From positions 1-27,821 of the forward strand of contig DASWLF010000374.1 of assembly GCA_036396255.1 (NCBI GenBank): a stretch of DNA of 27,821 nucleotides. The letters run 5' to 3'. This document shows positions 6,487 through 21,435 of this stretch, piece after piece (within the stretch, counting starts at the first letter, position 1; every line of letters starts with the position of its first letter). This stretch comes from Desulfobaccales bacterium (GTDB lineage Bacteria; Desulfobacterota; Desulfobaccia; Desulfobaccales; 0-14-0-80-60-11). Under the pieces are notes generated by a model. It was not told where the DNA came from, ran no database searches, and saw nothing but the letters and a program-made list of their open reading frames with translations. Made by a program: the position numbers and the translations under genes.

Positions 6487-6527
6487 ATGCTAGAGGCAGG
6501 CACGGAGGCCTGCTCCACGAGTAGCAT
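6487..6527. terminator. Stem-loop between the convergent pha/GAF and gvp transcription units
   Basis: ATGCTA/TAGCAT outer pair and GCAGGC/GCCTGC inner stem, followed by TTTCTCT on the plus strand. Confidence 0.35.
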
Positions 6528-6561
6528 TTCTCTGACTTCTGCCGGAGACCCCCTTCGCCAC

Positions 6562-6876: not shown

Positions 6877-6887
6877 TTGGGTCCTCC

Positions 6888-7247: not shown

Positions 7248-7465
7248 GGGTCAACTCCCAGGCAGCTGCCCATCTCCCCGGCGGACCTGAGCTCCCGGGC
7301 AGTATCCAGGGAACTCAGGATGAGCTGCAGCCCCAGGTAGATGAGATCGATATTGGCCACGGAAATCATCACTTCTCCCACGACTACCGCACCCTTGTTG
7401 AGGACCCGGTCCAGGGCCTCGCACAAAGAGACCCGCTCCAGATCATCCAGGAATGGGTCGGACAT
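7244..7465 (-). CDS. GvpA/GvpJ/GvpS-family minor gas vesicle protein (GvpA2-like)
   Basis: MSDPFLDDLERVSLCEALDRVLNKGAVVVGEVMISVANIDLIYLGLQL. ATG at 7465 with a GGGAGA SD. 4-nt overlap with gvpK. Confidence 0.85.
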   Translation of the reverse strand: MSDPFLDDLERVSLCEALDRVLNKGAVVVGEVMISVANIDLIYLGLQLILSSLDTARELRSAGEMGSCLGVDP

Positions 7466-9446
7466 AGGGTCTCCCGGAAGGGCAAGGCGAACCGGCCCCC
7501 TTCCGGCCCGGGCGGTCATAAAGGACGGGGCGCCGCCCCCGGGGCTGGTAGAGGTTTTGCCCCAGCCCGGCCAGGCGCTTAAGGCCCCGGGGTTCATCCT
7601 GCCGGTAGACCAGGGTCAGGTGCCGGTCCTTGAACTTTCGCAGGAACCGGGCCTTGACCTGGGCTTCCCTCAGATTCATGGCGGCACAAAGCGGACAGGG
7701 GGCGGCCGGGGTGGCCTGGTTGAGAAACAGCACCGGCGTCGGCAGACCCAGCCGCTGGCAGGCCGCCACCAGGTCTGCCGTCTCCCTGAAGGCCATTTCG
7801 GTGAGCCCGGCCACGACATAAACCGCGGTCCGGTCCGGGTCGCACCACAGCTTCCGGAGTCGCTTTAAGCCCTTGGAAATCCTTACCAGGCGCTGAGAGA
7901 ACCCCGGCATCCGAAAAGCCAACCTGTACTTCAAGAGCACGCCGAAAAAGCCCTTGAGCCACTGGTCCATGATCTCCGGCATTTCCAGGAGGCGGAGCAG
8001 GTGGCCGGTGGGGGCCGCATCCAGGACAAAAAGGTGGAACGGGCCTTGCTCCAGAAAGTCCAGGGTCCGGGTCAAGGCCATGATTTCGTCCAGGCCCGGG
8101 GGCGACAGCTCCAGAAGCTGCTCCAGCGCCCGGCGGTCAAAGGGCAGGTCGAAGCCGCGGCCCAATGGTTCCAGGAAGCGCTCCAGACCCTGGCGAAACT
8201 CCCTTTTGAGGGAGTCCAGTTCCCTGGCCGGGTCCATTTCCATGGCCATGAGAGCCGGCAGGACCCGGGTGGGTTCCGGGCCCAGGCGCATCTTCAGGCA
8301 GTCCGCCAGGGAATGAGCCGGGTCGGTGGAGACGAGCAGGATCTCCTGGCCTTTCAAGTCCTGGGCCAGGCGCAGCGCGGTGGCGCAAGCCAGGGTGGTC
8401 TTGCCCACTCCGCCTTTGCCGGCGAAAATCAGAAACCTGCTCTGGGAGGAGGGGAGAGCCGGGGCGTCCTCCACCCGGGGGGGAAGGGGGAAAATCCTGG
8501 GCGGGGCCGGGGCCTCGCCGGGCATAAGTCTGGCGGCGCTGCCCCAGAATTTCTCCAGAGACTTGCCCCGCACTTCCCACCGGTGCAGCGGCACCCCCCA
8601 GAGATCACATCCGGCCAGGGCCTCGGCGTCGGCAAGCCCCTGGATGATCCGGCGCTGGCGCCGGCGCGCCCCGGTGCACCCCGGGCAAGGGCTTTCGGGG
8701 ATGAGCCGGTTGATCACGATCTCGGAAACCGGCACCTGGAGCCGCTTGAGGGCCTGGAGAAGGTCCAGCGTCTCCTGGACCGCCATCTCCTCGGCCAGCA
8801 TCACCGGCACAAACCGGCAGCGGCCGGGGTCCTTAAGCAGGGCTTCCAGACGCTTTAGAGATTTGGCCAGATCCAGCAGGAAGGCGTCCACTTCATCGGC
8901 CGGGCACGCCCCGTTGAACCGCCTTCTCAGGAAGCGGTGCTTGGCCAGCAAGGTGTCCAGGACCCCCAGCCAGCGGCGGAGCAGCTCCGGCATGGTGAGC
9001 AGCCGCAGGGTGTGGCCGGTGGGGGCGGTGTCCACCACCAGGGTGTCGTATCTCCGGGCTGCCGCCGTCCGGGAGATCTCCAGCAGCGCCATGAGCTCGT
9101 CCAGGCCGGGCAGGGAAAGATCCAGGAAATGGCCCAAGTCCTCCTCGTCCAGAAAGGTGCCACGCAGGGCGATCTCCCGGAGCTTCTGGCGGTGCTCGGC
9201 CTGGAAAGCCGCCAGGGCGCCGCGGGCGTCCAACTCCAGGACGGTCAGGTTGGCAGGCGGGGTCAGGCCGGCGAGGCTGTCCCCCACGGAATGGGCCGGA
9301 TCAGTGGAGATGAGCAGAAAAGCGGCCCGGGGAGAGGAGCGGGCCAGCTGCAAGGCCGCGGCCGTGGCGCAGGTAGTCTTTCCCACCCCGCCTTTACCGC
9401 CGAAGAAGAGCAGCTTGAGGCCATGACCCTCCAAAAAAGTGAGCAT
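7443..9446 (-). CDS. Tandem two-domain ArsA/Get3-family ATPase
   Basis: Two copies each of GKGGVGKT, STDPAHS, PGLDE and D(T/A)APTGH, plus a C-terminal CxxC in each domain (CPGC, CPLC). Confidence 0.92.
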   Translation of the reverse strand: MLTFLEGHGLKLLFFGGKGGVGKTTCATAAALQLARSSPRAAFLLISTDPAHSVGDSLAGLTPPANLTVLELDARGALAAFQAEHRQKLREIALRGTFLDEEDLGHFLDLSLPGLDELMALLEISRTAAARRYDTLVVDTAPTGHTLRLLTMPELLRRWLGVLDTLLAKHRFLRRRFNGACPADEVDAFLLDLAKSLKRLEALLKDPGRCRFVPVMLAEEMAVQETLDLLQALKRLQVPVSEIVINRLIPESPCPGCTGARRRQRRIIQGLADAEALAGCDLWGVPLHRWEVRGKSLEKFWGSAARLMPGEAPAPPRIFPLPPRVEDAPALPSSQSRFLIFAGKGGVGKTTLACATALRLAQDLKGQEILLVSTDPAHSLADCLKMRLGPEPTRVLPALMAMEMDPARELDSLKREFRQGLERFLEPLGRGFDLPFDRRALEQLLELSPPGLDEIMALTRTLDFLEQGPFHLFVLDAAPTGHLLRLLEMPEIMDQWLKGFFGVLLKYRLAFRMPGFSQRLVRISKGLKRLRKLWCDPDRTAVYVVAGLTEMAFRETADLVAACQRLGLPTPVLFLNQATPAAPCPLCAAMNLREAQVKARFLRKFKDRHLTLVYRQDEPRGLKRLAGLGQNLYQPRGRRPVLYDRPGRKGAGSPCPSGRPYVRPIPG

Positions 9447-9635
9447 GTCGTCCCCATCAGATTCTGGTTTGAGAAGCCTGGGGCGCCATCCTCCAAGGCC
9501 TTCCCCCTAGTCACCGGGATTCAGGGGGGGCCGGAGGTGCCCCCGGCCAGGTGAGCGGCGCTGCCGCTCCGGGGTCGGGCCCCCTTTACCCCCCCTCGCA
9601 CCCTCATCCCCCTCGGTTTTCCCCTGCCCCGCCCG

Positions 9636-9875
9636 TCACTGACTCGCATCAGAGGGCTGCATCAGGTCCAGGCGGTCCAGCAGGATTTTCTCCCGGGCGT
9701 CGAACTCTTTTTCGGTAATCTGGCCGGTTTCCAGCCGCATATAGAGCTCGCTCAATTCGGCGGTTATGGCTTCCGAGGCCCCGGCCTGCTCCTCTTGGGC
9801 CGCGTTGTACACTTCTTTAAAAATCCAAAAAATGCCGCGGAAGGGAGCAGTCAGAAGGTCGTCGATGATCAGCAT
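9636..9875 (-). CDS. gvpG: Gas vesicle protein GvpG
   Basis: MLIIDDLLTAPFRGIFWIFKEV...LSELYMRLETGQITEKEFDAREKILLDRL. ATG at 9875 with an AAGGA SD. Confidence 0.9.
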   Translation of the reverse strand: MLIIDDLLTAPFRGIFWIFKEVYNAAQEEQAGASEAITAELSELYMRLETGQITEKEFDAREKILLDRLDLMQPSDASQ

Positions 9876-9901
9876 CTCATTTCCTTTATCGGCCGGGCGG
9901 C

Positions 9902-10657
9902 TCACAACTTGAGGTCCAGGTCCACAAAGTTGTGGGGGGCCCAGGGGCCGTTGTAGTCAAAGGCGAAATTGTTGTCAAAGAGCCGGGCCGCCTCGAAGAC
10001 GTCCGCCTCGAAGGCCGCCTCAGCCTCCCGGTCCACCAGGCAGGCCAGGTTCATGACTTCGGACTCCACCCGGCAGCGGTTGCGCTTGATCTCCCGGCAG
10101 GAGTGGGCCAGGGCCTCTTCCACCTGGGTGGTGTAGAGTTCCCGGTCCTCGTGCAGCAGGCGGTCAAAGAGGCGGCCCAGCTCCAGCTTGTCTTCCTGGG
10201 AGGGGTGCCGCTGGGGGCCCAGCAGCCGGTCCCGGGCGGCCCGCAGCCCCGTATGGGTGGTGACGAAATATTCGAAGATATTGGGAACGTCCCAGGAGAC
10301 CCGCAGCCCCATCTCCATCTTTCCGGCCACGCGCCCCAGTTGCTGGAGGAAAGCCTTCTGGTTGCGGGAGAGGATCCTCTTCACGGCTTTGGGCCCCTCG
10401 GCGATGATGCCGAAGGACATGGGAAGCATGGCCGGCGTGCCTTTCATCAGGCCCTGGAGGACGGTCTGCTGGGCCGCCAGATGACGGCGCTCCGGACGGA
10501 GCCGCTCCAGGGGGAGATCGCTGACCACCGCGGCCACTTTCCCATTGGTGATGGTGTAAACCGGTTTCCCTTCCAGGCCCTTAAAGGCATAAACCTGCTC
10601 CACCGGGCCGGGCACCACCGCGTATAGGTATCTGCCGCTTTTCGCTAGCTGGGTCAT
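9902..10657 (-). CDS. gvpF: GvpF/GvpL-family gas vesicle protein (GvpF1-like)
   Basis: GRYLYAVV..., MLPMSFGII, EMGLRVSW, MNLACLV and GPWAPHNFV. Confidence 0.92.
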   Translation of the reverse strand: MTQLAKSGRYLYAVVPGPVEQVYAFKGLEGKPVYTITNGKVAAVVSDLPLERLRPERRHLAAQQTVLQGLMKGTPAMLPMSFGIIAEGPKAVKRILSRNQKAFLQQLGRVAGKMEMGLRVSWDVPNIFEYFVTTHTGLRAARDRLLGPQRHPSQEDKLELGRLFDRLLHEDRELYTTQVEEALAHSCREIKRNRCRVESEVMNLACLVDREAEAAFEADVFEAARLFDNNFAFDYNGPWAPHNFVDLDLKL

Positions 10658-10752
10658 AATCTCACCTGCATGTTCTTGGATTGGGAGGTGGGCGCCTGAG
10701 GACCACCCCCTGCCCGCTTCCGCCCCGGCCGACTAAGGTCTGCCCCCGGGTT

Positions 10753-10947
10753 TCAGATGGCGGCGCCTTCGCCCCATACCCCTGGGCGGGGCACCATTTT
10801 CACAAATCTGACGGTTTTGAGATTGCCCTCTTCGGTCTTGATCTCCAGCAGGGCCGTGCATGCAAAGCACTTGACCTGCCCCTCGAAGTCATCGTAGGCG
10901 TCATCCAGGTCCACTTTGTGTCCGCAGGAAAGGCAGTTAATTCTCAT
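10753..10947 (-). CDS. Small Zn-ribbon protein (CxxC-x18-CxxC)
   Basis: MRINCLSCGHKVDLDDAYDDFEGQVKCFACTALLEI. GAGGAG SD. Tightly packed in the operon. Confidence 0.8.
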   Translation of the reverse strand: MRINCLSCGHKVDLDDAYDDFEGQVKCFACTALLEIKTEEGNLKTVRFVKMVPRPGVWGEGAAI

Positions 10948-10970
10948 GTTCTCTACTCCTCAGGAGGCCG

Positions 10971-11336
10971 TTAGACGATTCCCTGGCCCTTGCAGGCGTG
11001 GCAGTAAAAGATGCCGTCGGCGCCGGTGCCCCGACACCTGGGGCAGATCCTGGCTTCCGGGCGCACCGGCACCACTCCCTGGCCCCGGCAGGCCAGGCAG
11101 ACCAAATCCCCCGCGGCCCGTCCGGAGCCGGCGCACCGCCGGCAGGTAACGATGGGCGGTGCGGTCTTGATCTCCCCGGCCCCCCCGCAGACGGGACAGC
11201 CGGAGGCGCCGCCGTAGATGGGGTCCTCCCCGGTGCCGCGGCAGTAGGCGCAGGGCACCAGGTCCACGAACCGCATGAGCGTCGAGCCGCCGGCGTTAGG
11301 GCCGAATCGGCTCAGGACTTTCAGGGCATAACCCAT
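10971..11336 (-). CDS. Stand-alone DnaJ-type cysteine-rich Zn-finger protein (6 x CxxCxGxG, no J domain)
   Basis: CAYCRGTG, CPVCGGAG, CRRCAGSG, CLACRGQG, CPRCRGTG, CHACKGQG. Start is at ATG 11336 (MGYA) or 11276 (MRFV). The longer ORF-track call to 12113 overlaps other genes. Confidence 0.82.
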   Translation of the reverse strand: MGYALKVLSRFGPNAGGSTLMRFVDLVPCAYCRGTGEDPIYGGASGCPVCGGAGEIKTAPPIVTCRRCAGSGRAAGDLVCLACRGQGVVPVRPEARICPRCRGTGADGIFYCHACKGQGIV

Positions 11337-11557
11337 GGGGCCCCTTGCCTCTGCAGACGGCAGTACCAGAGGTGCTCCCCCCACCCCTGGGCCAGCCAGC
11401 GGCGCCGCCATTCCCTCTGGGCCAGGGCCGCCTCCTCCTGAAAGAGCCGGCGCCGTTCGGCCAGCTCCCGGGAGACCCCCGTGGAAGTGCGGCAGACCCG
11501 GAAGCCTTTGAGATGCCGCCCGGTCCTGAGATGGTGGGAATTCTTGAGGGTGAGCAT
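11321..11557 (-). CDS. Hypothetical basic protein, 78 aa
   Basis: AAGGA SD 7 nt before the ATG. Starts 15 nt after the gvpV-like stop and fills the gap exactly. N-terminus MLTLKNSHHLRTGRHLKGFRV, followed by a charged helix. Confidence 0.65.
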   Translation of the reverse strand: MLTLKNSHHLRTGRHLKGFRVCRTSTGVSRELAERRRLFQEEAALAQREWRRRWLAQGWGEHLWYCRLQRQGAPWVMP

Positions 11558-11572
11558 AACCGTATCCTTTTC

Positions 11573-11866
11573 TCAATACCTGATCTTGAAGCCCTGGGGG
11601 CCGCGGCGCCTGGCCCGGGGCTGGGCATAGTCGCAGTCCCCCTCTCCCATGGCCTGGAGCAGGGAGGTTTTCTCCGCCTCGATCTCGCTGAGGCGCGCCG
11701 CGATGTCGCTCATCCTTTGCCGGGCGCTCTCGCTTTCCCGGGTGCGCCGGGCCTTTTCCAACTCGATGTGGCTGATGCGCAGATAAGCCATGTAAGGCAC
11801 GGTGGCTTTGCCCACCCGGCCCGACAGGGTCCGGAGGTCCTGGAGTCCTCGGCGGGGGATGCTCAT
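11573..11866 (-). CDS. gvpV: GvpV-like coiled-coil gas vesicle protein
   Basis: MSIPRRGLQDLRTLSG...YMAYLRISHIELEKARR...LSEIEAEK. AAGGAGG SD. Immediately after gvpN, the gvpV position. The symbol rests partly on synteny. Confidence 0.65.
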   Translation of the reverse strand: MSIPRRGLQDLRTLSGRVGKATVPYMAYLRISHIELEKARRTRESESARQRMSDIAARLSEIEAEKTSLLQAMGEGDCDYAQPRARRRGPQGFKIRY

Positions 11867-11880
11867 ACCTTCCCTCCTTT

Positions 11881-12858
11881 CTAAGCGGGGCCGGGGGGGG
11901 AGCCGTCGCAGACCGCGGCGATGACTTCGTCCACCTTGCCCCCCATGAGTGACTGTCCCGCCCGGGTGACCTTGGCGGTGTCGGCGTTGAGCACGTCCCG
12001 GCAGGCCCAGTGAAAGACGGGGTCGTGCAGCCGGGCCCGGCCCCCCCGGTGGGCCAGAATCCGGGCGATGGCGATGCAGGCCCGCACCGTGGGCCGGTGG
12101 TTGTTGACCCCAAAACCCCGGAGCTCCCGCACCACGTTCACGATGGCCTCGGCATCCGCCCGGCCAATGCCGGACCTGGCTATGGCGATCTGGACCTCGG
12201 TTTCCCGGTCGAAGTGGCCGAGAGCGACGGTGATGAGCCGGTCCAGGAGGGCGTCCTGGGTCTTGTGCACCCCGGCGTACTCCTCGGGATTGGAGGTGAA
12301 GATGGCCCGGAACTCCGGGTGCACTTCCAGGTAGCCGCCGCCGTTGCGGCTCATATTGGGGAGGTTGAGAATCCTTTCCTCCAGGATGCTGAGCAGGGCG
12401 TTGTTGGCCTCGGGGCGGGACCGGGTGAATTCGTCGTAGATGAGGGTATAGCCCTCCTTGCAGGCCGTGGTCAGGCGGTTGTCCATCCACAGCACATTCA
12501 TGGATTCTTCCGTCTTCAGGACGGAATGGATGAAATTGTCGATGAGCTTCTGTTTGCGGTAGCCGGCGTGCCGGCCCACCAGGTCGGAGCTGCCGAACTC
12601 GTCGTCCCCGTGGATCAGGGTGACGGGCCGCCGCAGCTGCGCCGCCACGTGGAAGGCCAGGGTCGTTTTCCCGGTCCCGGCGGAGCCGGCAAAGTGGACG
12701 GGGTAGCCCACCTCCAGATACGCCAGGGCCCGGTCGGTGAGCTCCTGGACATAGGGCGTATAGACAAATTCCGAACTGGCCTCGGGAGAAATCTGGTCCT
12801 CAGGGTCTGGAACGTTCACCGTGGCCGCGGACAACCTCCTTACCTTCTTACCACCCAT
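11881..12858 (-). CDS. gvpN: Gas vesicle AAA+ ATPase GvpN
   Basis: Walker A GSAGTGKT, LIYDEFTRSRPEANN, TSNPEEYAGVHKTQDALLDR. AGGAG SD. Confidence 0.96.
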   Translation of the reverse strand: MGGKKVRRLSAATVNVPDPEDQISPEASSEFVYTPYVQELTDRALAYLEVGYPVHFAGSAGTGKTTLAFHVAAQLRRPVTLIHGDDEFGSSDLVGRHAGYRKQKLIDNFIHSVLKTEESMNVLWMDNRLTTACKEGYTLIYDEFTRSRPEANNALLSILEERILNLPNMSRNGGGYLEVHPEFRAIFTSNPEEYAGVHKTQDALLDRLITVALGHFDRETEVQIAIARSGIGRADAEAIVNVVRELRGFGVNNHRPTVRACIAIARILAHRGGRARLHDPVFHWACRDVLNADTAKVTRAGQSLMGGKVDEVIAAVCDGSPPGPA

Positions 12859-13162
12859 GTATCAGCTCCTGTAACCTTGGTTTTTCCGGGCATTCGCTTC
12901 ACCCTGGCGGGGGGGCGCAGGCCCAGCCGCCCGCAGCCTCCGTCGAGAGCCTGGTACGGGCCCTGCCCATCCCTAACAACGGCAAATTGGCCGGTTTCCT
13001 TTAATACTTTTTTATCAGGGGCAGTCGGAATCAGGAAAGGAACCAACCACCCCACCGGCGCGGGTTCGGGGGCCCCCGGGCTGCCGTGGCCGGGGAACCT
13101 GCCGGAGTTCCGCCGGCCCGGGGCTGCCGGGAGTCCAGGCTGGGTTGCCTGGCCGCCCTGGC

Positions 13163-13588
13163 TTAGCCTTGGGGCTTTTTCCGATCCCGGCCGGCCGGAC
13201 GCTTCTTGGCGGCCGGCCCGCCGCCCGGTTTGCCTCCTTTGGCCGCAGGGCGCCTGGCAGCATCCCCGGTTTTCGGGGAGGTCTGCCGGACCGGTTCCCT
13301 GGCTGGCTTCGGCCCCTGGCTGGTGGCAGGCCCGAACCAGGCCCGGTGGGCGCCTTTCAGGTCCAGAAAGTTGTCCTGACGCAGGCCGGCCACCGACATC
13401 TTCAGATCCAATACCGCCTTGGCCCGCCCTTCCCTGGTCTCCCGGGACATCTGCTCGTGGGCCTGGCGGAACCCGGCCTTCAGTTGCGCCACAGTGCGCA
13501 CCAGGTCCTGCACGAAGGCCTGGCGCAGACCGCGCAGCGCCACAATCTCTCCGCATAACCGGGTCATGTCATCGGTTAAGGAACCCAT
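13163..13588 (-). CDS. gvpC: GvpC-like protein with a basic Pro/Ala/Gly-rich C-terminal tail
   Basis: MGSLTDDMTRL...DLKGAHRAWFG resembles proteobacterial GvpC termini as I recall them. Directly after gvpA. Confidence 0.7.
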   Translation of the reverse strand: MGSLTDDMTRLCGEIVALRGLRQAFVQDLVRTVAQLKAGFRQAHEQMSRETREGRAKAVLDLKMSVAGLRQDNFLDLKGAHRAWFGPATSQGPKPAREPVRQTSPKTGDAARRPAAKGGKPGGGPAAKKRPAGRDRKKPQG

Positions 13589-13620
13589 TTTTCACTCCTT
13601 GTGCATTCTCAAGGGGCCGG

Positions 13621-13683
13621 CCGGGGGCCTGCCTTGGTGCAGGCGCCCCGGAGTCCCCTGGAGGGAGGGGCCGGGCCCCTCCC
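13621..13683 (-). other. Two GC-rich stem-loops 3' of gvpA copy 2
   Basis: GGGAGGGGC/GCCCCTCCC (13663-13683) and a bulged stem at 13621-13651. No U-tract. Confidence 0.6.
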
Positions 13684-13708
13684 GGGAGAAGGATTAGGTC
13701 AGAATGCC

Positions 13709-13927
13709 TTAGGCCGGAGCCGCGGCGCTGGCCGTCAGGCCGATGGCTTCGGCGTACTTCAGGTAGGTCTCCACCGAGGCGATGACCACCCGGGCTTCGA
13801 TGGACAGCAGTTCGATGCCCACCAGCGCCACCTTGACCCAAGCGTCGATGACAATGCCCTTATCCAGGATGCGATCCACTACTTCCGCCAGGCTGGAGGA
13901 ATCGGTGGATTTCTGTACTTTGGCCAT
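13709..13927 (-). CDS. gvpA: Major gas vesicle structural protein GvpA, copy 2
   Basis: [55 protein letters not shown]. Confidence 0.98.
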
Positions 13928-13986
13928 GATCGGTCTCCTTTGCGATTTTGTGGCGGCGTTATCTCATCAGGGCGCTTCGGCCGGGC

Positions 13987-14250
13987 TCACTTGCCGCACC
14001 AGGCCCGGCGGGCCCCATCCAGGTCCGCAGCAAAGGCCTGCCGCAGGCCGGCCACGGTCTTCTTCAGATTGGCAAAATTCCTGGCCCGTTCCGACTTGCT
14101 TCTCCGGGCCATGTCATGGTGGTGGCGGCGCAAGGACGCCTTCAGGGTGGCCACGTCGCGGCGCAGGTGCTTGACAAAGGAATGTCGCGCCCCCCGCATG
14201 GCCACGATCTCTCCACACAACCGAGTCATATCGTCGGTTAAGTGACCCAT
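13987..14250 (-). CDS. gvpC: Short GvpC-like protein
   Basis: MGHLTDDMTRL...DLDGARRAWCGK. ATG at 14250 with an AAGGAG SD. 50/87 identical to the 13163-13588 product, ungapped. Confidence 0.7.
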   Translation of the reverse strand: MGHLTDDMTRLCGEIVAMRGARHSFVKHLRRDVATLKASLRRHHHDMARRSKSERARNFANLKKTVAGLRQAFAADLDGARRAWCGK

Positions 14251-14334
14251 AGGGTTTCTCCTTCTTCTCCGTCGTCGGTTTTTTCTGGCTGCCCCCAACC
14301 TCCCGGCCTCATTGCCGGGGCCGGGGATACCAGC

Positions 14335-14363
14335 CTTCCCGGGAGGGGTCGCCTCCCGGGAAG
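14335..14363 (-). other. 12-bp stem-loop 3' of gvpA copy 1
   Basis: CTTCCCGGGAGG-N5-CCTCCCGGGAAG, perfect. A second 6-bp stem lies at 14302-14319. No U-tract. Confidence 0.7.
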
Positions 14364-14370
14364 CGGTTCC

Positions 14371-14589
14371 TTACGCCGGAGCGGCTGCGCTGGCGGTGAG
14401 GCCGATGGCCTCGGCGTACTTCAGATAGGTCTCCACCGAGGCGATGACCACCCGGGCCTCAATGGACAGCAGTTCGATGCCCACCAACGCCACCTTGACC
14501 CAGGCATCGATGACGATGCCTTTATCCAGAATGCGATCCACTACTTCCGCCAGGCTGGAGGAATCCGTGGATTTCTGCACCTTTGCCAT
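14371..14589 (-). CDS. gvpA: Major gas vesicle structural protein GvpA, copy 1
   Basis: Protein identical to copy 2. GGAGG SD. Confidence 0.98.
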
Positions 14590-14626
14590 GTTGAACCTCC
14601 TTCGTTACCCGTTAGTTTTAGAAGAA

Positions 14627-14640
14627 TCAGGCATGCCTGA
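14627..14640. promoter_or_regulatory. Perfect 14-bp palindrome at the predicted gvpA transcription start
   Basis: TCAGGCATGCCTGA is self-complementary. Confidence 0.45.
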
Positions 14641-14650
14641 CGTATTGTGG

Positions 14651-14666
14651 TCCAAGAACCATGCCA
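14651..14666 (-). promoter_or_regulatory. Sigma54-type (-24/-12) promoter of the gvpA operon
   Basis: Minus strand TGGCATGGTTCTTGGA gives GG-N10-GG, near the TGGCAC-N5-TTGC consensus but with G instead of C at -12. A GAFTGA activator is encoded in the cluster. Confidence 0.65.
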
Positions 14667-14761
14667 CAACTAAAAATAAAAAATCTTGTGTCTAAGTAAC
14701 AATAATGATTACGATTTCAGATTGTCGCCGAACCTGCCCAGGCGCCATTGATGAAAGCAAT

Positions 14762-14781
14762 CTATGGAATGAATTCCATAG
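14762..14781. promoter_or_regulatory. Perfect dyad, candidate upstream activator site
   Basis: CTATGGAAT-GA-ATTCCATAG, about 100 bp upstream of the -24 element, with an AT-rich tract between. Confidence 0.55.
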
Positions 14782-14796
14782 TATAGAAGTCACGCC

Positions 14797-15183
14797 TTAC
14801 ATTGCCACGGCCTTTAAAATTTCCTCCTGCTGAAAAGGCTTGCTGATGAAACTATTGATCAGCCCCTGGGACAACGCCTGTTGAATGGCAACATCGTCCC
14901 GGTAAAAGTAACCGGAGACCAGGACCACGGCCATGGACGGCTCTAATTTCCGCATTTGCCTGGCCAGGTCCAGGCCGTCCACGTCCGGTAACTTGACGTC
15001 CACGAAAGCCAGAAAGAAACGATGTTGTTTCATCAAGTCAAGAGCCTTAATGCCACTTAAAGCTTTCTTAGTGTTAAATCCATTTTTATTTAAAATGTGT
15101 TCCAGGACCCAGCACATGTCCGGTTCGTCATCCACAATGAGGAGTAGTCTGGCGGCAGCCACAGCCTTGCCCCCGGTCTTCAC
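14797..15183 (-). CDS. Single-domain response regulator (GvrC-like by synteny)
   Basis: LIVDDEPD, AFVDVKLPDVDG and FISKPF. GTGA overlap with the kinase. Confidence 0.9.
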   Translation of the reverse strand: MKTGGKAVAAARLLLIVDDEPDMCWVLEHILNKNGFNTKKALSGIKALDLMKQHRFFLAFVDVKLPDVDGLDLARQMRKLEPSMAVVLVSGYFYRDDVAIQQALSQGLINSFISKPFQQEEILKAVAM

Positions 15184-16667
15184 AGGATGGGCAGCCGGAC
15201 GGTGAAGGTGGCCCCGGCGCCCACGCTGCTGTCCACCTCAATGGTCCCCAGGTGCTGTTTGATGATGGAATAGGAGATGGAGAGCCCCAGGCCCGAGCCC
15301 TGGCCCACCGGGGCGGTGGTGTAAAAGGGGTCGAAGATCTTGTCCAGGTCCTGGGGGGAGATGCCGTGGCCGGTGTCGGAGATGCGGACCCACACTTCGT
15401 CTGCGTCCGAACCCAGGGCGGTGGTTAACACCCCGCCGTCGGGCATGGCCTTGATGGCATTCAGGAACAGGTTCAGAAACGCCTGTTGCAACAGGGCCTC
15501 GATGCCGCTGATCCACACGGGCCCGGCCGTCAGTTGGCTCACCAGCTCGATCTTTTGCACCCTGGCCTGGGTGGTGACCAGGGACAGGGTCTCCTTCAGC
15601 ACCGCGATCAGGTCGGTCTGCTGCCGGGCCATTTCCACCGAAGGCCGGGCGAACCGCAGCAGGTTCTCGATGATCATGCAGGCCCGGTTGATGCCGGCGT
15701 GGATCTTGTGGGCGCACTCCTGCCGCAGCTCCGGGTCATCCTGGTCGGCCATGAGGAACTGGGCCGCGGAGGAGCAGACGGCCAGGGGGTTGCGCACCTC
15801 GTGGGCGATGCCTCCGGCCATCACCCCCAGGGCCGCCAGCTTCTGGGACTGGAGCAGCTGGGCTTCGAATTTGCGGCGCTCGGTGAGGTCCCGGCCCACC
15901 GCCACCACCCCCGCGGTCTTGGACTGGTCGTCGATCAAGGGGGAGCACACCCAGGAGACCTGGACCTGCCCGCCGTCCCGGGTCACCAGGTCCCACTCCG
16001 CCATTTGCGAGTCCTGGCCGGTCTTCAGGCTGGCGAAGACCCGCTTCATTTCCGCCTGCTGCTCCGGGGCGCAGAAATCGCTGAAGGCCCGGCCCTTGAC
16101 TGCGGGGAAGCCAAATCCCGACAGGTGTTCCGCCGCGGTGTTCCAGGTCAGGATCTTGCCGTCGTTGTCGGTGGAAAGCACCATGTCCCGGGCGCTTTCC
16201 ACCACGGATGCCAGGTGGCGCTCCACCCGCCGCACCTCTTCGCTCAGGCGCACCTGCTCGGTCACGTCCTCCATCAGGAGCATGGCCTGCTCCACTTTGC
16301 CGTTCCAGGAGAAGGGGAGGACGCTGTAGTAATAGATGCGCAGGGGAATCCCCGGGGCCCGGTAAGTCATGCGCTCCCCCCGGGTGGGCTGGTTCTGCTC
16401 CAGGGCCTGGCGCAGGCGGCCGTCGATGTTGACATGGTCCAGAATGATGGCCGGGAACACCTCATCCAGGCGGCGGCCGATGGTGTCCGCCGGGGAGCGC
16501 CGCATCTTCTTCAGGAAATTCCGGTTAACCGAGGCGATCCGCAGGTCCCGGTTAATGAGCAGCACCGAGGAGGGAATGGCCTCCAGGAGCATCTCGTAGA
16601 GTTTCTGATAACGTTGCGGCGATTTGGGGGAGGCAGACTCGGCTGCCATCGCCGGCGGCTGTTCCAT
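15180..16667 (-). CDS. PAS-PAS sensor histidine kinase (GvrB-like by synteny)
   Basis: Two PAS domains, H-box GIAHEVRNPL, N-box QAFLNLFLNAIKAM, DTGHGI and GSGLGLSI. No transmembrane segment is evident. Confidence 0.93.
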   Translation of the reverse strand: MEQPPAMAAESASPKSPQRYQKLYEMLLEAIPSSVLLINRDLRIASVNRNFLKKMRRSPADTIGRRLDEVFPAIILDHVNIDGRLRQALEQNQPTRGERMTYRAPGIPLRIYYYSVLPFSWNGKVEQAMLLMEDVTEQVRLSEEVRRVERHLASVVESARDMVLSTDNDGKILTWNTAAEHLSGFGFPAVKGRAFSDFCAPEQQAEMKRVFASLKTGQDSQMAEWDLVTRDGGQVQVSWVCSPLIDDQSKTAGVVAVGRDLTERRKFEAQLLQSQKLAALGVMAGGIAHEVRNPLAVCSSAAQFLMADQDDPELRQECAHKIHAGINRACMIIENLLRFARPSVEMARQQTDLIAVLKETLSLVTTQARVQKIELVSQLTAGPVWISGIEALLQQAFLNLFLNAIKAMPDGGVLTTALGSDADEVWVRISDTGHGISPQDLDKIFDPFYTTAPVGQGSGLGLSISYSIIKQHLGTIEVDSSVGAGATFTVRLPIL

Positions 16668-16732
16668 GAAGCCTCCTTGGGCCCGCCTTGCAAGGCACTC
16701 TCAGTATCAGCGGCATCTGGCCATCGGTCTGA

Positions 16733-17467
16733 CTAATCCGGCGGCAATGGGTGCTCTCCGTCGTCGGTAACAAAATTATAGGGAGGCCAGGGGCCGCTCA
16801 ACAGCAGCTTGGCCGCGGCGGTGCGGCTGAAGCGGCGAAACCTCTGGCGGAAAGACGCCACCCGTGGCCGGGGCACCAGAAAATATAACGACAGCAAGGG
16901 CAGGCGGGGCGGCGGGCCTTCTGCTTTGACCTTGGTAAACAGTCCGGAAAAAGTGCCCTGCAGTTCCCGAACCAGCCGGCCATGTTCCCGGCTCCACCCC
17001 TCCAGGCGGTGGTAATGGACCTCCCGGGCCTTTAGGTAGGCCAAGCCGGGGGAAGCCGGCCCGGCGCCGTCCTTTAGGCCCACCGGCACCGGGGCCGCCG
17101 GAGGGGTGGCCGGCACCGGCACCAGGAGGCGAATTCCCATCTCCACGCAGCCGTCCAGTTCCTGCAAGAGGGCGGCATAGCGGGGGCCGCGCTCTAAGAG
17201 CAGGCGGGCCACCTGGGATTCGTCGGCCAGACGGCAGCCATAGCGCAGGGGAATCACGGTGCGGCGCCGGTTCAGAGACGCCACCACCTGTTCGTGGGCC
17301 CGGACCCCGGCGAGGTCGAAGGACAGGTCTCCCTCATCAACCCGGGAGACGGCCAGGCCCAGGTGTTGGTGGCAGACCAGGTGCACGGTCTGCCCCCCCA
17401 CCCCCGGGGGCATGGCGGGGTTCGCCGACTCCGGCCGGCGCAGGGCGCAATAGAGGTGGTAACTCAA
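16733..17467 (-). CDS. GvpF/GvpL-family protein (GvpF3-like)
   Basis: YHLYCAL, VIPLRYGC, CVEMGIRL and SGPWPPYNFV. TTG start overlaps the upstream TGA. Confidence 0.9.
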   Translation of the reverse strand: MSYHLYCALRRPESANPAMPPGVGGQTVHLVCHQHLGLAVSRVDEGDLSFDLAGVRAHEQVVASLNRRRTVIPLRYGCRLADESQVARLLLERGPRYAALLQELDGCVEMGIRLLVPVPATPPAAPVPVGLKDGAGPASPGLAYLKAREVHYHRLEGWSREHGRLVRELQGTFSGLFTKVKAEGPPPRLPLLSLYFLVPRPRVASFRQRFRRFSRTAAAKLLLSGPWPPYNFVTDDGEHPLPPD

Positions 17468-18387
17468 GGGTCGGTCTCCATGGTCAGGGAAGGAGAGAAG
17501 CTATACGGCGGCCAGGGGCCGGTGCATTCAAAGACCAGGCCGTAGGGGCTATGAAGGCGGTTGGCCGCTTCGATCCTGGCCTTGAAGCCGAAGGCGGCCG
17601 CCTTGGGAACCAGATAAGCCCAATTCAGAATCATTTCCTGGCCGCTGCCGTTGCCGCCCCGGTCCGAGAGCCGCCCCTGGGCCCAGTGCAGGGCGCAATC
17701 CTGAAGCGCCGCGCCCAACTCCTGGCAGACTTCCCGGAGCCAGCGGGGAAGCTCCCGCTCGGCCACCCGCCGCAGACGCTGTTCCTCCAGGTATCTCCGG
17801 CCGGCCGGCAGACCATCCAGGCGGTCCCCTTCCTGGGCCAGCCGCTGGGCCAGGTGCGCTTCCAGGGCCAGGGCCCTGGTCAGCAACCCCTTGACCGCCC
17901 ATTCCTCCTGGTCCGCCACCCGGTCCAGGAACCGGGCCACCGTATCGTGGTGGACCCGTAAGAGCTGCTCCAGCCTTTCCCGGCAGGTGAACAGGGTGCC
18001 GAACCGGGCCGGCAACACCGGAGAGTTACGCATCACCGCCTCCACCACCTCCTGGTGGCGGCAGGCCCGGGGGCCCACCCAGGATAGGTCTTGCAAGTGG
18101 TGGGCGGCTTCCGGCCCGCAGAACTCCTCCAGAGGAACCTCGCAATAGATAGCCGCGAGATCCCCCAAACTCGCCAGACACAAAGGGCGCCCGTCCAGGC
18201 CGGCTCCCGGCAGGGGCGGCAGGAGGCTCAAACGGGCCAGGCAAAAGAGGTAAAGGCCGGAAGCTATCCCAGGGGTTTCAGGGATATTTTTTTCGCCTTT
18301 TCGCCTTTTCGCCTTTTGCCCCGAGGCACTTGGCGGAAAAGAGATTTGTTTATCCAAAGTTAGTCCCCTATCCAGGGCGGGGCTCAC
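17464..18387 (-). CDS. GvpF/GvpL-family protein (GvpF2-like)
   Basis: GLYLFCL, VLPARFGTLF, EEWAVK, LNWAYLV and GPWPPYSF. Start is GTG 18387 (GTGA overlap) or TTG 18357. Confidence 0.9.
   Translation of the reverse strand: MSPALDRGLTLDKQISFPPSASGQKAKRRKGEKNIPETPGIASGLYLFCLARLSLLPPLPGAGLDGRPLCLASLGDLAAIYCEVPLEEFCGPEAAHHLQDLSWVGPRACRHQEVVEAVMRNSPVLPARFGTLFTCRERLEQLLRVHHDTVARFLDRVADQEEWAVKGLLTRALALEAHLAQRLAQEGDRLDGLPAGRRYLEEQRLRRVAERELPRWLREVCQELGAALQDCALHWAQGRLSDRGGNGSGQEMILNWAYLVPKAAAFGFKARIEAANRLHSPYGLVFECTGPWPPYSFSPSLTMETDP
18290..18320. repeat. Octamer tandem repeat (TTTTCGCC)x3 + TTTTGCC inside the gvpF/L 5' coding region
   Basis: Units at 18290, 18298 and 18306, then a 7-nt variant at 18314. 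Confidence 0.85.
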
Positions 18388-20510
18388 TCCTGGCGCAACG
18401 CCTCCAGGGCCTTTTCCAGGTCCGGGGGGGTGATGAGCACCTGGCCCGGTTTTTTGCCCGGTCCTTTGCTCAGGGCCCGGCGCACCGCGCTCAGGGCCGC
18501 CTGGTTGCAGACCGAGGCGATTTCCGCGCCGCTGAACCCCTCGGTCCTGGCGGCCAGGGCCGCGGCGTCGATCCCCGGGGCCAGGGGTTTGCCCCGGAGG
18601 TGCACCTTGAAGATTTCCCGGCGGTCCTCTTCCTGGGCCGGGGGGATCTCCACGATCTCATCGAAGCGCCCCGGCCGGAGCACCGCGGGGTCCAGGATGT
18701 CCAGGCGGTTGGTGGCCCCCAGCACCAGCACCCCCTTCAGTTCCTCGATGCCGTCCAGCTCCGCCAGGAACTGGCTCAGGACCCGCTCGCTGACGTGGGA
18801 GTCGCCGGAGCCCACGCCCCGCATGGGCAGGAGGGCGTCGATCTCGTCCAGAAAAATAATGCACGGGGCCGCCTGCCGGGCCTTGCGGAAGATTTCCCGC
18901 ACCCCCCGCTCGGACTCCCCCACGTATTTGGAGAGCAGCGCCGGCCCCTTCACCGAGATGAAATTCACCCGGGACTCGTTGGCGATGGCCTTGGCCAACA
19001 GCGTCTTGCCGCAGCCCGGCGGGCCGGACAGGAGGATCCCCTTGGGGGGTTTGATCCCCGCCTCCTTGAAGAGATGGGCATACTGCAAGGGCCACTCCAC
19101 CGCCTCTTTCAGACGGTCCTTCACCCACTTGAGGCCGCCCACGTCCCGCCAGTAGACATCGGGCACCTCCACGAAGACCTCCCGGATGGCCGAGGGCTCC
19201 ACCTCCCGCAGGGCCCCCAGGAAGTCATCCATGTGCACCTCCAGCTTGGCCAGCTGCTCGTAAGGGATGGTGGTCAGGGAGAAATCGATGTCCGGCATGA
19301 GGCGGCGCAGGCAAATCATGGCGGCTTCCCGGCACAGGGCCTCCAGGTCGGCTCCCACGAAACCGTGGGTGATTTCCGCCAGGTGGCTCATGTCCACGTC
19401 CTCGGACAGGGGCATGCCCCGGCTGTGGATCTCCAGGACCTCCAGGCGGCCGTGGCGGTCGGGAATGGGGATGGCGATCTCCCGGTCAAAGCGCCCGGGG
19501 CGGCGCAGGGCCGGGTCCAGGATGTTGGGCAGATTGGTGGCGGCGATGACGATGACGTTCTGGCGCTTGGTGAGGCCGTCCATTAAAGCCAGGAGCTGGG
19601 CCACCACCCGTTTTTCCACGTCCCCCAACACGGTCTCCCGCCGGGGGGCGATGGAATCTATTTCGTCTATGAAGATGATACTGGGGCCCTTGCGGGAGGC
19701 CTCCTCGAAGATCTTGCGCAGGTGGGCCTCGGACTCGCCGTAAAACTTGTGCACCACCTCGGGGCCGCTCACCGAGAAGAAGTTGGCCTCCGTCTCCTGG
19801 GCGATGGCCCGGGCGATGAGGGTCTTGCCGCACCCCGGGGGGCCGTGCAGCAGAACGCCTTTGGGGGCGTCGATGCCCAGCCGCTGAAAGACCTCCGGGT
19901 AACGCAAGGGCAGCTCGATCATCTCCCGGATGCGCTGGAGTTGGGGCTTGAGGCCGCCGATGTCTTCGTAGGCCACCGCCGAGGTCGCCCGCACGCCCTC
20001 CTGGGGCTGGGCCTTGCCGATGACCAGAGTGGTGGTGGGGTTGATCAGCACCGGCCCCTTGGGGGTCAGCCGCTCCACCTTGAAGTCGGCCCAGCGGCTG
20101 CCGAACAGGGTGGCCCGGATACGGTCCCCCTCCAGCACCGGCAGCCCGTCCAGGAGGCTGCCGATGTACTTCAGGTCCCGGTCCTGGGGGGTGATGGTCA
20201 GCGGCGTCAGCACCACCCGCTCCGCCCCCCGGCAGGCGATTCTGCGGACCTGGACGTATTCGTCCAGGCCGGCGCCGGCGTTCTCCCGGCTGAGGCCGTC
20301 CAGCTGCACCCGGGACTGGCCCCGGAGCTCCTTATAGGCCGGCATGGCCTTGCACACCGCCCGGCGCTTCCCCGCCACCTCCACCAGGTCGCCGATGGCC
20401 ACCCCCAATTTTTCCAGGTCTTCGGGCCCCATGCGGGCAAAGGCCCGGCCCACGTCCTTGCTCAGGGCCTCCGTCACCTTCAGCTTGCCCGTTGCCTCCG
20501 GTTTCTTCAA
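18384..20510 (-). CDS. cdc48: CDC48/VCP-family AAA+ ATPase (GvpZ-like by synteny)
   Basis: N-domain (VGRAFARMGPEDL...VQLDG), D1 GPPGCGKT/IFIDEID, D2 GPPGCGKT/IFLDEID, and LRPGRFD twice. TTG start with a G-rich SD. Confidence 0.95.
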   Translation of the reverse strand: MKKPEATGKLKVTEALSKDVGRAFARMGPEDLEKLGVAIGDLVEVAGKRRAVCKAMPAYKELRGQSRVQLDGLSRENAGAGLDEYVQVRRIACRGAERVVLTPLTITPQDRDLKYIGSLLDGLPVLEGDRIRATLFGSRWADFKVERLTPKGPVLINPTTTLVIGKAQPQEGVRATSAVAYEDIGGLKPQLQRIREMIELPLRYPEVFQRLGIDAPKGVLLHGPPGCGKTLIARAIAQETEANFFSVSGPEVVHKFYGESEAHLRKIFEEASRKGPSIIFIDEIDSIAPRRETVLGDVEKRVVAQLLALMDGLTKRQNVIVIAATNLPNILDPALRRPGRFDREIAIPIPDRHGRLEVLEIHSRGMPLSEDVDMSHLAEITHGFVGADLEALCREAAMICLRRLMPDIDFSLTTIPYEQLAKLEVHMDDFLGALREVEPSAIREVFVEVPDVYWRDVGGLKWVKDRLKEAVEWPLQYAHLFKEAGIKPPKGILLSGPPGCGKTLLAKAIANESRVNFISVKGPALLSKYVGESERGVREIFRKARQAAPCIIFLDEIDALLPMRGVGSGDSHVSERVLSQFLAELDGIEELKGVLVLGATNRLDILDPAVLRPGRFDEIVEIPPAQEEDRREIFKVHLRGKPLAPGIDAAALAARTEGFSGAEIASVCNQAALSAVRRALSKGPGKKPGQVLITPPDLEKALEALRQE

Positions 20511-20535
20511 CTTCTCCCCCTCAAATATTCATTCA

Positions 20536-20567
20536 CCCCCACCCCCACCCTCCCCCTCAAGGGGGAG
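20536..20567. repeat. C/G-tract palindromic element
   Basis: CCCCCACCCCCACCCTCCCCC-TCAA-GGGGGAG, containing the hairpin CTCCCCC/GGGGGAG. Confidence 0.6.
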
Positions 20568-20636
20568 TAAAGGCAGGCCCGAGACCCCTGCAAAAGTATC
20601 AAGATCAATATTCTCGCGGGTGGAAGGTCTTGTAAG

Positions 20637-20738
20637 CCCCCCTCCCCCCCTTTAAGAAAGGGGGTAATTAAAGATAACTCCCTGATAAACCATGGAAACT
20701 AATCTTAAGTCCCCCTTTTTCTAAAGGGGGATTTAGGG
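20637..20738. repeat. Inverted pair of CCCCCTTT-N3/4-AAAGGGGG hairpin repeats
   Basis: Hairpins at 20646-20664 and 20711-20730, with related C-rich and G-rich outer flanks in opposite orientation. Confidence 0.7.
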
Positions 20739-20916
20739 CGATTATTTACGCCTTCCTCTTTTGACTAAGCCTTTTTCAGCTCTCGGTCCTTCTTTGGGGC
20801 GCTGATTAATAACGGCCTGCCGGTCAACCCCATGGGAGAAACCAGCAAGGGTCTAAAAAAAGGAAATTCCTGCGGTCTTCCTGCCCTCTTCGCCCTTTCG
20901 CCTGTTCCCCTCTGCC

Positions 20917-21435
20917 TCACCCCACGCACTTGATCTCCAGGATGCCGTTGTTGCAGGAGACCTTCATGCGGTCCCGGGGGTAGGCCCGGGGCAGGAGGAT
21001 CTCCTTGCGGTATTTCTTGTCGCCCCGGGCGGCGTGGATGGTCAGCAGGTCGTCTTTGACGTCCAGGCGCACCTCCTTGAGGCTGACGCCCGGGATTTCC
21101 GCCACCACCAGGGTGTAGCCCTTTTCTTCGAAGACATCCACCACGGGCTCCCGGATCTCCTGGACCGTGGTCTCGCCCGAGCCGGCATCCTGGCGCACGT
21201 TGCCGAAGGGCTCCACCTTGAACTCCTTGTCGCCCTTGTCCCCCAGGCCCACCTTCACGGTGAAGCCGTAAACGCCCTTGAGGTCCTTGCTCTCGCCCCG
21301 GATCTCCCCGCTTTTGGAGAGGGTCTCCCCCTTGTCGGCCAGCTCCCCCAGTTTCTCCACCAGGTCCGCCAGCCCCTTGAAGATTCCACCGAAGCTGTAT
21401 CCTGACTCCCCACCCTTCACTTTTCTGTTGGTCAT
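20917..21435 (-). CDS. Hsp20/alpha-crystallin small heat shock protein (GvpH-like)
   Basis: VYGFTVKVG...EPFGNV...IREPVVDVFEE...VVAEIPGV...YRKEILLP...CNNGILEIK. Confidence 0.9.
   Translation of the reverse strand: MTNRKVKGGESGYSFGGIFKGLADLVEKLGELADKGETLSKSGEIRGESKDLKGVYGFTVKVGLGDKGDKEFKVEPFGNVRQDAGSGETTVQEIREPVVDVFEEKGYTLVVAEIPGVSLKEVRLDVKDDLLTIHAARGDKKYRKEILLPRAYPRDRMKVSCNNGILEIKCVG

Follow-up and report, generated by a model that had tools for sequence, protein, structure and literature searches.

Introduction

The hydrophobic beta strands of the gas-vesicle shell protein GvpA drive its aggregation, and without prior assembly factors the protein is proteotoxic (PMC12848028). How cells keep GvpA soluble, insert it in the growing shell and handle collapsed vesicles is an open question. 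Among the described gas-vesicle (gvp) clusters, that of Serratia sp. ATCC 39006 includes a named gvpH-gvpZ pair (PMC4982088). In 2010 Castillo and Saier reported two-domain ArsA homologues and hsp20 inside the gvp clusters of Geobacter uraniireducens, Pelodictyon, Polaribacter, Anabaena/Nostoc and an acidobacterium, and proposed that the ATPase 'energizes a biogenic step' and that Hsp20 is a chaperone (PMC2963123). These homologues are about 640 amino acids (aa) long and have no ars genes nearby, and their hosts span a deltaproteobacterium, Chlorobi, Bacteroidetes, cyanobacteria and an acidobacterium; the ATPase was seen as an ArsA-type energiser, and neither Cdc48 nor zinc-finger proteins are mentioned (PMC2963123). 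Here we describe a gvp cluster on contig DASWLF010000374.1 (27,821 nt, analysed at full length and called the window), which has a GC content of 64% and belongs to an 81%-complete Desulfobaccales metagenome-assembled genome (MAG). It is a Serratia-type cluster with five accessory genes, and a complete example of a known cluster type. The five genes encode a tandem Get3/ArsA ATPase, a DnaJ-type zinc finger without a J domain, a Zn ribbon, an Hsp20 and a Cdc48.

All five were found beside the GvpN gene, on the minus strand (Table 1), as an earlier note on this DNA had listed them. The family labels of that note hold, with three refinements: the ATPase is a fused two-domain pseudo-dimer, the Hsp20 belongs to the GvpH family, and the zinc finger is 121 aa long. 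The helper genes have intact motifs, are co-inherited with gas-vesicle genes, and include an Hsp20-Cdc48 pair of fixed adjacency. We consider them accessory parts of a widespread Serratia-type gvp cluster, most likely devoted to quality control of the hydrophobic GvpA-family shell proteins, and give this reading a probability of roughly 55%. The earlier note placed the set outside the standard gvp model. This holds only by half, given the 2010 report of ArsA and Hsp20 (PMC2963123) and the naming of gvpH and gvpZ in Serratia (PMC4982088). The helper set is partly named and partly published. A literature search found no paper tying 'gas vesicle' to Cdc48 function or to Get3.

The gene order of the window follows that of Serratia sp. 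in both parts. One, which in Serratia is the right-hand operon, runs sigma-54 activator, Hsp20, Cdc48, two gvpF genes, histidine kinase and response regulator; the other runs gvpA, C, N, V-like, F and G, followed by an A-family gene, gvpK and a second A-family gene. Hsp20 and Cdc48 occupy the positions of Serratia gvpH and gvpZ (PMC4982088). The window differs in carrying the tandem Get3/ArsA gene where Serratia has gvpW, in adding the zinc finger and the Zn ribbon, and in a duplication of gvpA-gvpC.

The Hsp20-Cdc48 pair, the Get3-like ATPase and the zinc finger, which are rarely inherited apart from gvp genes, are evident candidates for the missing GvpA-handling machinery. Heterologous expression of gas vesicles is proteotoxic, which restricts their use as acoustic reporters (PMC12848028), and engineered vesicle expression might improve if these helpers were added.

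Comparison sets

The 80 GvpN loci closest to that of the window were collected, with 10-kb flanks, from species-representative genomes; counts are given for the 43 loci of at least 19 kb. The titles of the 80 loci name Desulfobaccales, Desulfomonilaceae, Syntrophobacterales, Acidobacteriota, Verrucomicrobiota, Nitrospinia, Calditrichaeota, Rokubacteria and others, and the closest GvpN relatives are Desulfobaccales and 'delta proteobacterium' MAGs. A second set consisted of 201 genomes drawn evenly from the phylum of the window. Thirteen of these, from 12 families, carry GvpA (GvpA+) and 188 do not (GvpA-).

Co-inheritance with gas-vesicle genes

The helpers are co-inherited with gas-vesicle genes at a rate far above chance and are not chance neighbours. 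The earlier note held that the set is a dedicated part of the cluster and proposed profiling against gvpA; both the recurrence in the 43 loci and the profile of the 201 genomes bear this out. Hsp20 was present in 42 of the 43 loci, Cdc48 in 41, the Zn ribbon in 32, the ArsA-type ATPase in 30 and the zinc finger in 25, compared with 43 for GvpG and 42 for GvpK among the core genes. All five helpers occurred together in 14 loci, and the zinc finger was never seen without the Zn ribbon. Hsp20 and Cdc48 were adjacent and co-directional in every locus with complete copies of both (47/47).

In the phylum sample, a Cdc48 at E<=1e-100 was found in 11/13 GvpA+ and 12/188 GvpA- genomes. At an identity of at least 60%, a cut picked after inspection of the data, the figures were 10/13 and 0/188, and in seven of nine genomes (that of the window excluded) the Cdc48 that passed this cut lay on a contig carrying gvpA. 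ArsA-like proteins at E<=1e-30 were present in 9/13 GvpA+ genomes and 1/188 GvpA- genomes, and GvpH-type Hsp20 at E<=1e-10 in 11/13 and 1/188. Zinc-finger matches stronger than E 1e-11 were confined to gvp-carrying contigs (6/13 versus 0/188); the GvpA- genomes gave weak matches only, inside frames of 355-399 aa, the size of DnaJ. Fisher p values for the association of the helpers with GvpA range from 1e-8 to 1e-15 and are inflated by relatedness. Among the 12 GvpA- genomes with a match, the surroundings of eight non-gvp Cdc48 paralogues were inspected, and none of the eight had an Hsp20 neighbour.

The association extends to more distant clusters. Genomes G156 and G176 keep Hsp20-Cdc48 in another arrangement, and in G157 the order is gvpA, zinc finger, gvpN, Hsp20, ArsA. 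The annotated gvp operon of Methylosinus plasmid pMSC49b ends with gvpH, a hypothetical gene and CDC48. On Nostoc sphaeroides plasmid p4 two genes (L104 9801-13584) directly follow the gvp genes: one encodes an ArsA family ATPase (32% identical, without CxxC), the other a 613-aa double-AAA ATPase that is 51% identical to the rings of the window Cdc48 but has no Cdc48 N domain. In haloarchaeal plasmids, Hsp20 followed by Cdc48 also occurs as a pair on its own, outside gvp clusters. Since such pairs exist, Hsp20-Cdc48 looks like a pre-existing unit that was recruited by gvp clusters.

In a maximum likelihood tree, 26 gvp-linked Cdc48 proteins, for which titles and labels name six phyla, form one clade with support of 100/99. 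An open polytomy holds the sequences of G156, G176 and Methylosinus together with non-gvp and haloarchaeal ones. A single clade for all gvp-linked Cdc48 proteins is unsupported: the core clade is solid and the deeper sequences lie in the polytomy. Small heat-shock proteins (sHsps), Cdc48 and Get3 are general proteostasis families, and the haloarchaeal pairs do stand outside gvp clusters, as one would expect of general stress genes that happen to accompany the cluster and have no specific tie to gas vesicles. That explanation is hardly credible in view of the near-exclusive presence of the helpers in GvpA+ genomes, their fixed operon positions across several phyla and the distinct gvp-linked clade of Cdc48.

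The Hsp20-Cdc48 pair

The Cdc48 protein scores 879.3 bits against TIGR01243 over its whole length (cut-off 802.65) and contains the domains CDC48_N (8.6e-21) and CDC48_2 (1.2e-9) and two AAA stretches. Its top solved relative is Thermoplasma VAT (5g4f, 706 bits), with which it has in common an N domain, a pair of active AAA rings and the aromatic residues of the pore loops. Walker A reads GPPGCGKT in both rings, Walker B reads IIFIDEID and IIFLDEID, and the pore loops read KFYGESE and KYVGESE; the Walker motifs and the pore loops are at least 95% conserved across 50 gvp-linked sequences. Across the phyla of the related gvp loci the protein is 74-90% identical. The window protein differs from archaeal Cdc48 in its bacterial host and in lacking the HbYX motif for docking to the 20S proteasome: no HbYX was found at its C-terminus, which ends LEALRQE and has an unconserved tail. 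HbYX is a trait of archaeal Cdc48 partners of 20S and not of the family. As the C-terminus lacks this motif, a protease partner is not indicated.

The gene lies between gvpH-like and gvpF-like genes in an operon headed by a sigma-54 activator, which is the position of Serratia gvpZ. The Serratia deletion primer gvpZ_3F encodes VRWEDVG, a motif that precedes AAA domains, and the second ring of the window protein has VYWRDVGG; primer gvpF2_5F, upstream of gvpF2, encodes GLDDV, and the window has ELDGIEEL. By synteny and these two primer-encoded peptides, both of which suit AAA motifs where such motifs are expected, and not by protein alignment, the window Cdc48 is very likely the orthologue of Serratia GvpZ. 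A homologue search with the protein returned the names 'CDC48 family AAA ATPase' and 'transitional endoplasmic reticulum ATPase', and in no case 'GvpZ'.

The Hsp20 protein has an N-terminal helix region followed by an alpha-crystallin domain, which matches PDB 4rzk. It scores 23.6 bits against Pfam HSP20 (PF00011, cut-off 20.8) and 21.8 bits against Pfam GvpH (PF05455), just below the cut-off of 22. Its alignment with the protein of plasmid pMSC49b that PGAP names GvpH spans the full length (E 4e-13), and its orthologue in locus L102 has an unmarked PF05455 match. These matches place the window Hsp20 in the GvpH family, as judged from sequence. As on Halobacterium pNRC200 and a Natrinema plasmid, Hsp20 stands immediately upstream of Cdc48. 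The window sHsp differs from that of pNRC200 in its GvpH-type N-terminal extension, and the crystallin domains are about 26% identical.

The spacer between the two genes (window 20511-20916) measures 406 nt, compared with less than 100 nt in most relatives, and is packed with hairpin repeats of the type CCCCCTTT...AAAGGGGG. The summed contig depth in a groundwater DNA run leaps to about 1,600 at position 20716, within the spacer. It looks like a small repeated element inserted between both genes.

The setting of the pair also admits a regulatory role, in which Hsp20 and Cdc48 would remodel or remove the sigma-54 activator or the two-component proteins. In both the window and Serratia the pair shares an operon with gvrA, gvrB and gvrC (PMC4982088), and there is a precedent in Haloarchaea, where the NTPase GvpD acts on GvpE and lowers its level (PMC9501494). 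The pair is also found amid structural gvp genes with no such regulators nearby (Methylosinus pMSC49b, G156), however; it directly precedes gvpF paralogues, and no degron or adaptor is known. We regard a regulatory role as quite unlikely.

The tandem Get3/ArsA ATPase

The ATPase is a fused two-domain pseudo-dimer of the Get3/ArsA family. It scores 359 bits against TIGR00345 (cut-off 135) and 179.5 bits against the ArsA equivalog TIGR04291, far short of the cut-off of 650. By sequence it is closest to Chlamydomonas ArsA1 (5zme), which is a fused Get3, and to Get3 itself (7ru9), with E. coli ArsA lower. An AlphaFold2 model built from a 34-sequence alignment has a predicted local distance difference test score (pLDDT) of 81 and a predicted TM-score (pTM) of 0.80, and displays helical subdomains; in Foldseek it matched closed ArsA (TMt 0.76) and, over about one half, Get3 (TMt up to 0.81). 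GKGGVGKTT and D(T/A)APTGH occur in both halves and are invariant or nearly so in the 34 sequences. The P-loop, DTAPTGH, PGLDE and CxxC are each conserved in both halves in 42 of 42 sequences. The Get3-type CxxC pairs, C254/C257 and C584/C587, are likewise present in all 42, and the first-half pair aligns with the zinc-binding CxxC of Get3 7ru9.

It resembles Get3/TRC40 in the P-loop, switch II, PG(L/I)DE, the helical subdomain and, at the Zn site of Get3, the CxxC; the fused architecture is that of Chlamydomonas ArsA1, a tandem Get3. Unlike Get3/TRC40, the window protein has no known partners of Get1/2 or Get4/5 type, and it would target a protein shell and not a membrane. Compared with the ArsA-type energiser of Castillo and Saier, it is nearer to Get3/ArsA1 and has an invariant CxxC in both halves. 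A role as the arsenite pump subunit ArsA is rejected on the equivalog score, on a context without ars genes and on the motifs. Pfam annotation of the window proteins gave no ars gene, a search of the 81%-complete genome gave no acr3, and motif inspection, made with no residue-by-residue alignment to E. coli ArsA, found no conserved Cys at the PGLDE site.

The fold belongs to the dimer type with a deviant Walker A, there are weak Pfam matches to CbiA and ParA, and the helical subdomain, as read from the sequence, is charge-rich. With the 2010 phrase 'energizes a biogenic step' (PMC2963123), these features could fit an ATPase that is no chaperone and either positions or anchors vesicles in the manner of ParA/MinD or energises some step, as Castillo and Saier suggested. 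Against this, Get3, ArsA1 and ArsA, and not ParA, are closest in sequence and fold, the Get3-type CxxC is invariant in both halves, and a GvpA-family gene starts within the last 23 nt of the ATPase gene. We rate a non-chaperone ATPase as improbable, a shade more so than a regulatory Hsp20-Cdc48 pair.

Other copies and remnants of the gene were noted. Elsewhere in the genome of the window (G000), contig C57 (11569-13539) holds two adjoining single-domain ArsA/Get3 genes (open frames of 337 and 331 aa), apart from the gvp-linked fused one. In locus L094 (G064:C150) an internally deleted remnant at 2359-2705 retains residues 16-96 and 599-635 only, so that the gene is decaying in G064. In several MAGs of the MFD series the gene is split by frame changes. 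These MAGs are suspected to be long-read assemblies, and the frameshifts there may be assembly errors.

The zinc finger and the Zn ribbon

The zinc finger and its Zn-ribbon partner are the least described part of the set. The zinc-finger gene is the 121-aa reading given in Table 1; the listed open reading frame (ORF) of 380 aa overlaps gvpN. The protein has six CxxCxGxG motifs, with all Cys and Gly motif positions conserved in 52 sequences. It scores 29.6 bits against Pfam DnaJ_CXXCXGXG (PF00684), below the cut-off of 32.7, and resembles the DnaJ cysteine-rich domains 2ctt and 1exk as well as Pfam Anti-TRAP. No J-domain match was found in the gene, even in the longest frame of 380 aa. Since it lacks a J domain, it is not a DnaJ and merely carries the cysteine-rich domain. 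It shares the CxxCxGxG repeats with DnaJ and with Anti-TRAP-type proteins, and differs from DnaJ in having six motifs, giving three predicted Zn sites and not two, and in lacking the C-terminal substrate domains. BSD2 is a stand-alone DnaJ-like zinc-finger protein. In contrast to stand-alone proteins of this kind, the window type is confined to gvp clusters in the sampled phylum.

The place of the zinc-finger gene shifts: it follows the GvpV-like gene in the window, while the Desulfobacca-type locus and G142 have it between gvpC and gvpN (shifted genes at L102 17940-18287 and L093 13795-14109). Genomes G007, G118 and G134 have two zinc-finger matches each, on gvp-carrying contigs. A conserved basic 78-aa ORF stands beside the zinc-finger gene in 25 of the 43 loci.

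The Zn ribbon has two conserved CxxC pairs and no Pfam match. In the atlas it neighbours proteins without a name or generic Zn ribbons, among them the regulator-type Zn_ribbon_Brz, and no chaperone signature was found in Pfam, among these neighbours or by motif inspection. On these sequence features, a regulator role appears as plausible as a chaperone role.

Proposed function

The earlier note read the genes as a pathway for the delivery, holding and recycling of GvpA, with assembly as well as active disassembly of collapsed vesicles; the analysis supports this reading in part. The family assignments (sHsp, VAT-like unfoldase, Get3-like ATPase, DnaJ cysteine-rich domain) fit the handling of aggregation-prone GvpA-family proteins. 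The clients of the helpers, their direction of action (assembly help or dismantling) and their physical contacts are what we infer. Haloarchaeal GvpH prevents the aggregation of GvpM (PMC9501494), VAT-type Cdc48 is described as unfolding substrates through its pore (PMC5423775), and Get3 as shielding hydrophobic helices and also serving as a holdase (PMC3613179). By family, the GvpH-like sHsp would be a holdase for non-native proteins of the GvpA/J/M type. The VAT-like Cdc48 would thread GvpA-family proteins or off-pathway assemblies through its pore loops and free them for a new assembly attempt, so that the two proteins would act as a holdase-unfoldase pair clearing off-pathway GvpA-family material. 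The tandem Get3-like ATPase might shield a hydrophobic segment with its ATP-gated helical subdomain, and the zinc finger may be an extra holdase or an assembly co-factor; the former would add ATP-gated and the latter passive holding capacity. The set would be a non-essential helper that can be lost, that lifts yield and fidelity, and that matters most at high expression or in a foreign host.

The single deletions that the earlier note proposed have been made in part for the Serratia genes. In E. coli, the acoustic signal fell or disappeared when either gvpH or gvpZ was deleted (PMC10344784). In the native host, vesicles still form without gvpH or gvpZ, according to the summary of PMC4982088 given in PMC10344784. 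Because of the E. coli phenotype, the evidence leans towards assembly quality control over dismantling. In the latter case GvpH would mark collapsed or unwanted vesicles and Cdc48 would extract GvpA from them, the main job being active removal and recycling instead of assembly help. The Cdc48 resembles VAT, conserves its N domain, has aromatic residues in the pore loops of each ring and lacks a protease-docking tail, all of which is segregase-like, and the formation of vesicles despite the loss of gvpZ is as this account would have it. The reduced signal in E. coli points to a formation-like role, however, and sequence cannot tell shell extraction from disaggregation of off-pathway material. 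We hold dismantling as the main job to be unlikely.

A number of points weigh against quality control as proposed here. The native vesicles just mentioned are joined by the Serratia gvpH deletion, which left vesicle shape and stability unchanged, and gvpH is absent from the clusters of Anabaena flos-aquae and Bacillus megaterium (PMC4982088). Among the 43 related loci, the ArsA-type gene is missing or decayed in 13 and the zinc finger is missing in 18. A Spartinivicinus plasmid cluster has no listed Cdc48, Hsp20 or ArsA, in a PLSDB gene table that is incomplete. The 80 loci are kin picked by GvpN similarity and their counts are not independent; the post hoc 60% cut for Cdc48 and the footing of the GvpZ identity on synteny and primer peptides instead of protein sequence belong here as well. 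A complex prediction for residues 1-640 of the Get3/ArsA protein with GvpA scored 0.00, below the mark, a value that in itself speaks neither for nor against binding.

A more specific version, in which the GvpH-type sHsp is the adaptor for the GvpZ-type Cdc48, the two pull GvpA from collapsed or mis-built shells and the fused Get3-like ATPase next brings shell protein, whether recovered or newly made, to the vesicle under construction, is speculative and about as doubtful as dismantling. If true, it would be a targeting route like that of GET, with a gas-water protein shell as its destination instead of a membrane.

Cultured relative, distribution and expression

A protein identical to the NCBI-named Cdc48 of Desulfobacca acetoxidans sits in a locus with the whole helper set in the assembly of a public run, and the 3.28-Mb genome of the isolate is among the contigs with that identical Cdc48. 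Cultured D. acetoxidans very probably carries the full helper set and would offer a cultured system for decisive experiments.

DNA nearly identical to that of the window occurs in metagenomes from soil, groundwater, wetland, sediment and wastewater. In one groundwater metatranscriptome, on contigs of at least 90% likeness, the word depth reached 3,500-10,800 for gvpA/gvpC, about 210 in the bin over most of gvpN, at most about 40 for other genes and about 0-1 for ArsA. These community contigs only suggest that gvp clusters of this type are expressed, and co-transcription is not supported by them.

Features of the locus

All genes between about 6.5 and 23.5 kb of the window lie on the minus strand. 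They are listed in Table 1 in order of transcription.

Table 1. Genes of the gas-vesicle cluster in the window
Feature	Coordinates	Strand	Matches and remarks
Unknown 213-aa ORF	22844-23485	minus	No Pfam match; first in transcription order, directly upstream of sigma-54 activator
Sigma-54-dependent response regulator (gvrA position)	21449-22828	minus	Pfam Sigma54_activat 6.1e-62, Response_reg, HTH_8; directly upstream of Hsp20
GvpH-like Hsp20, 172 aa	20917-21435	minus	Pfam HSP20, GvpH
Cdc48/VAT-type double AAA+ ATPase, 708 aa (GvpZ position)	18384-20510	minus	TIGR01243, CDC48_N, CDC48_2, 2 AAA
GvpF/L paralogue pair (gvpF2/gvpF3 position)	17464-18387, 16733-17467	minus	Pfam GvpL_GvpF 8.5e-55, 1.4e-43; directly downstream of Cdc48
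PAS histidine kinase (with response regulator, gvrB/gvrC positions)	15180-16667	minus	Pfam
Response regulator (with histidine kinase, gvrB/gvrC positions)	14797-15183	minus	Pfam
gvpA, first copy	14371-14589	minus	Pfam Gas_vesicle 2.1e-16
GvpC-like gene, between both gvpA copies	13987-14250	minus	
gvpA, second copy	13709-13927	minus	Translation identical to first copy
Second GvpC-like gene	13163-13588	minus	
GvpN AAA+ ATPase, canonical gvp gene	11881-12858	minus	TIGR02640 341.8 bits, cut-off 266.8
GvpV-position gene	11573-11866	minus	
Basic 78-aa ORF	11321-11557	minus	
J-less DnaJ zinc finger, 121 aa	10971-11336	minus	Six CxxCxGxG motifs
Zn ribbon, 64 aa	10753-10947	minus	Two CxxC pairs
GvpF/L	9902-10657	minus	Pfam GvpL_GvpF 5.1e-62
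GvpG	9636-9905	minus	Pfam GvpG 4e-17; directly upstream of Get3/ArsA gene
Tandem Get3/ArsA ATPase, 667 aa	7443-9446	minus	Two ArsA_ATPase domains
GvpA-family GvpJ/M-like gene	7244-7465	minus	PF00741 at 7316-7429; 23-nt overlap with ArsA stop
GvpK-like gene	6888-7247	minus	Name from translation only
GvpJ-like gene	6562-6876	minus	PF00741 at 6718-6834

The 213-aa ORF at the head of the cluster is kept in 23 of the 43 related gvp loci at 46-56% identity, and is also present in G142, G064 and G176; it is probably an unnamed cluster member. A scan with a loose sigma-54 pattern gave 15 matches with 9.5 expected, and hence no enrichment. Window 13163-14589 is a tandem duplication of gvpA and the GvpC-like gene. 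The two GvpC-like paralogues are 58% identical over 86 residues, and the second has a long basic tail.

The cluster is flanked by polyhydroxyalkanoate (PHA) synthase genes and a branched-chain amino-acid ATP-binding cassette (ABC) transporter. The class III PHA synthase genes, PhaE- and PhaC-like, lie at window 2871-6383, beside the gvp cluster. Between PHA synthase genes and a double-GAF protein, a low-GC gene at 4773-5237 encodes a four-helix bundle of the 23S-rRNA-intervening-sequence type.

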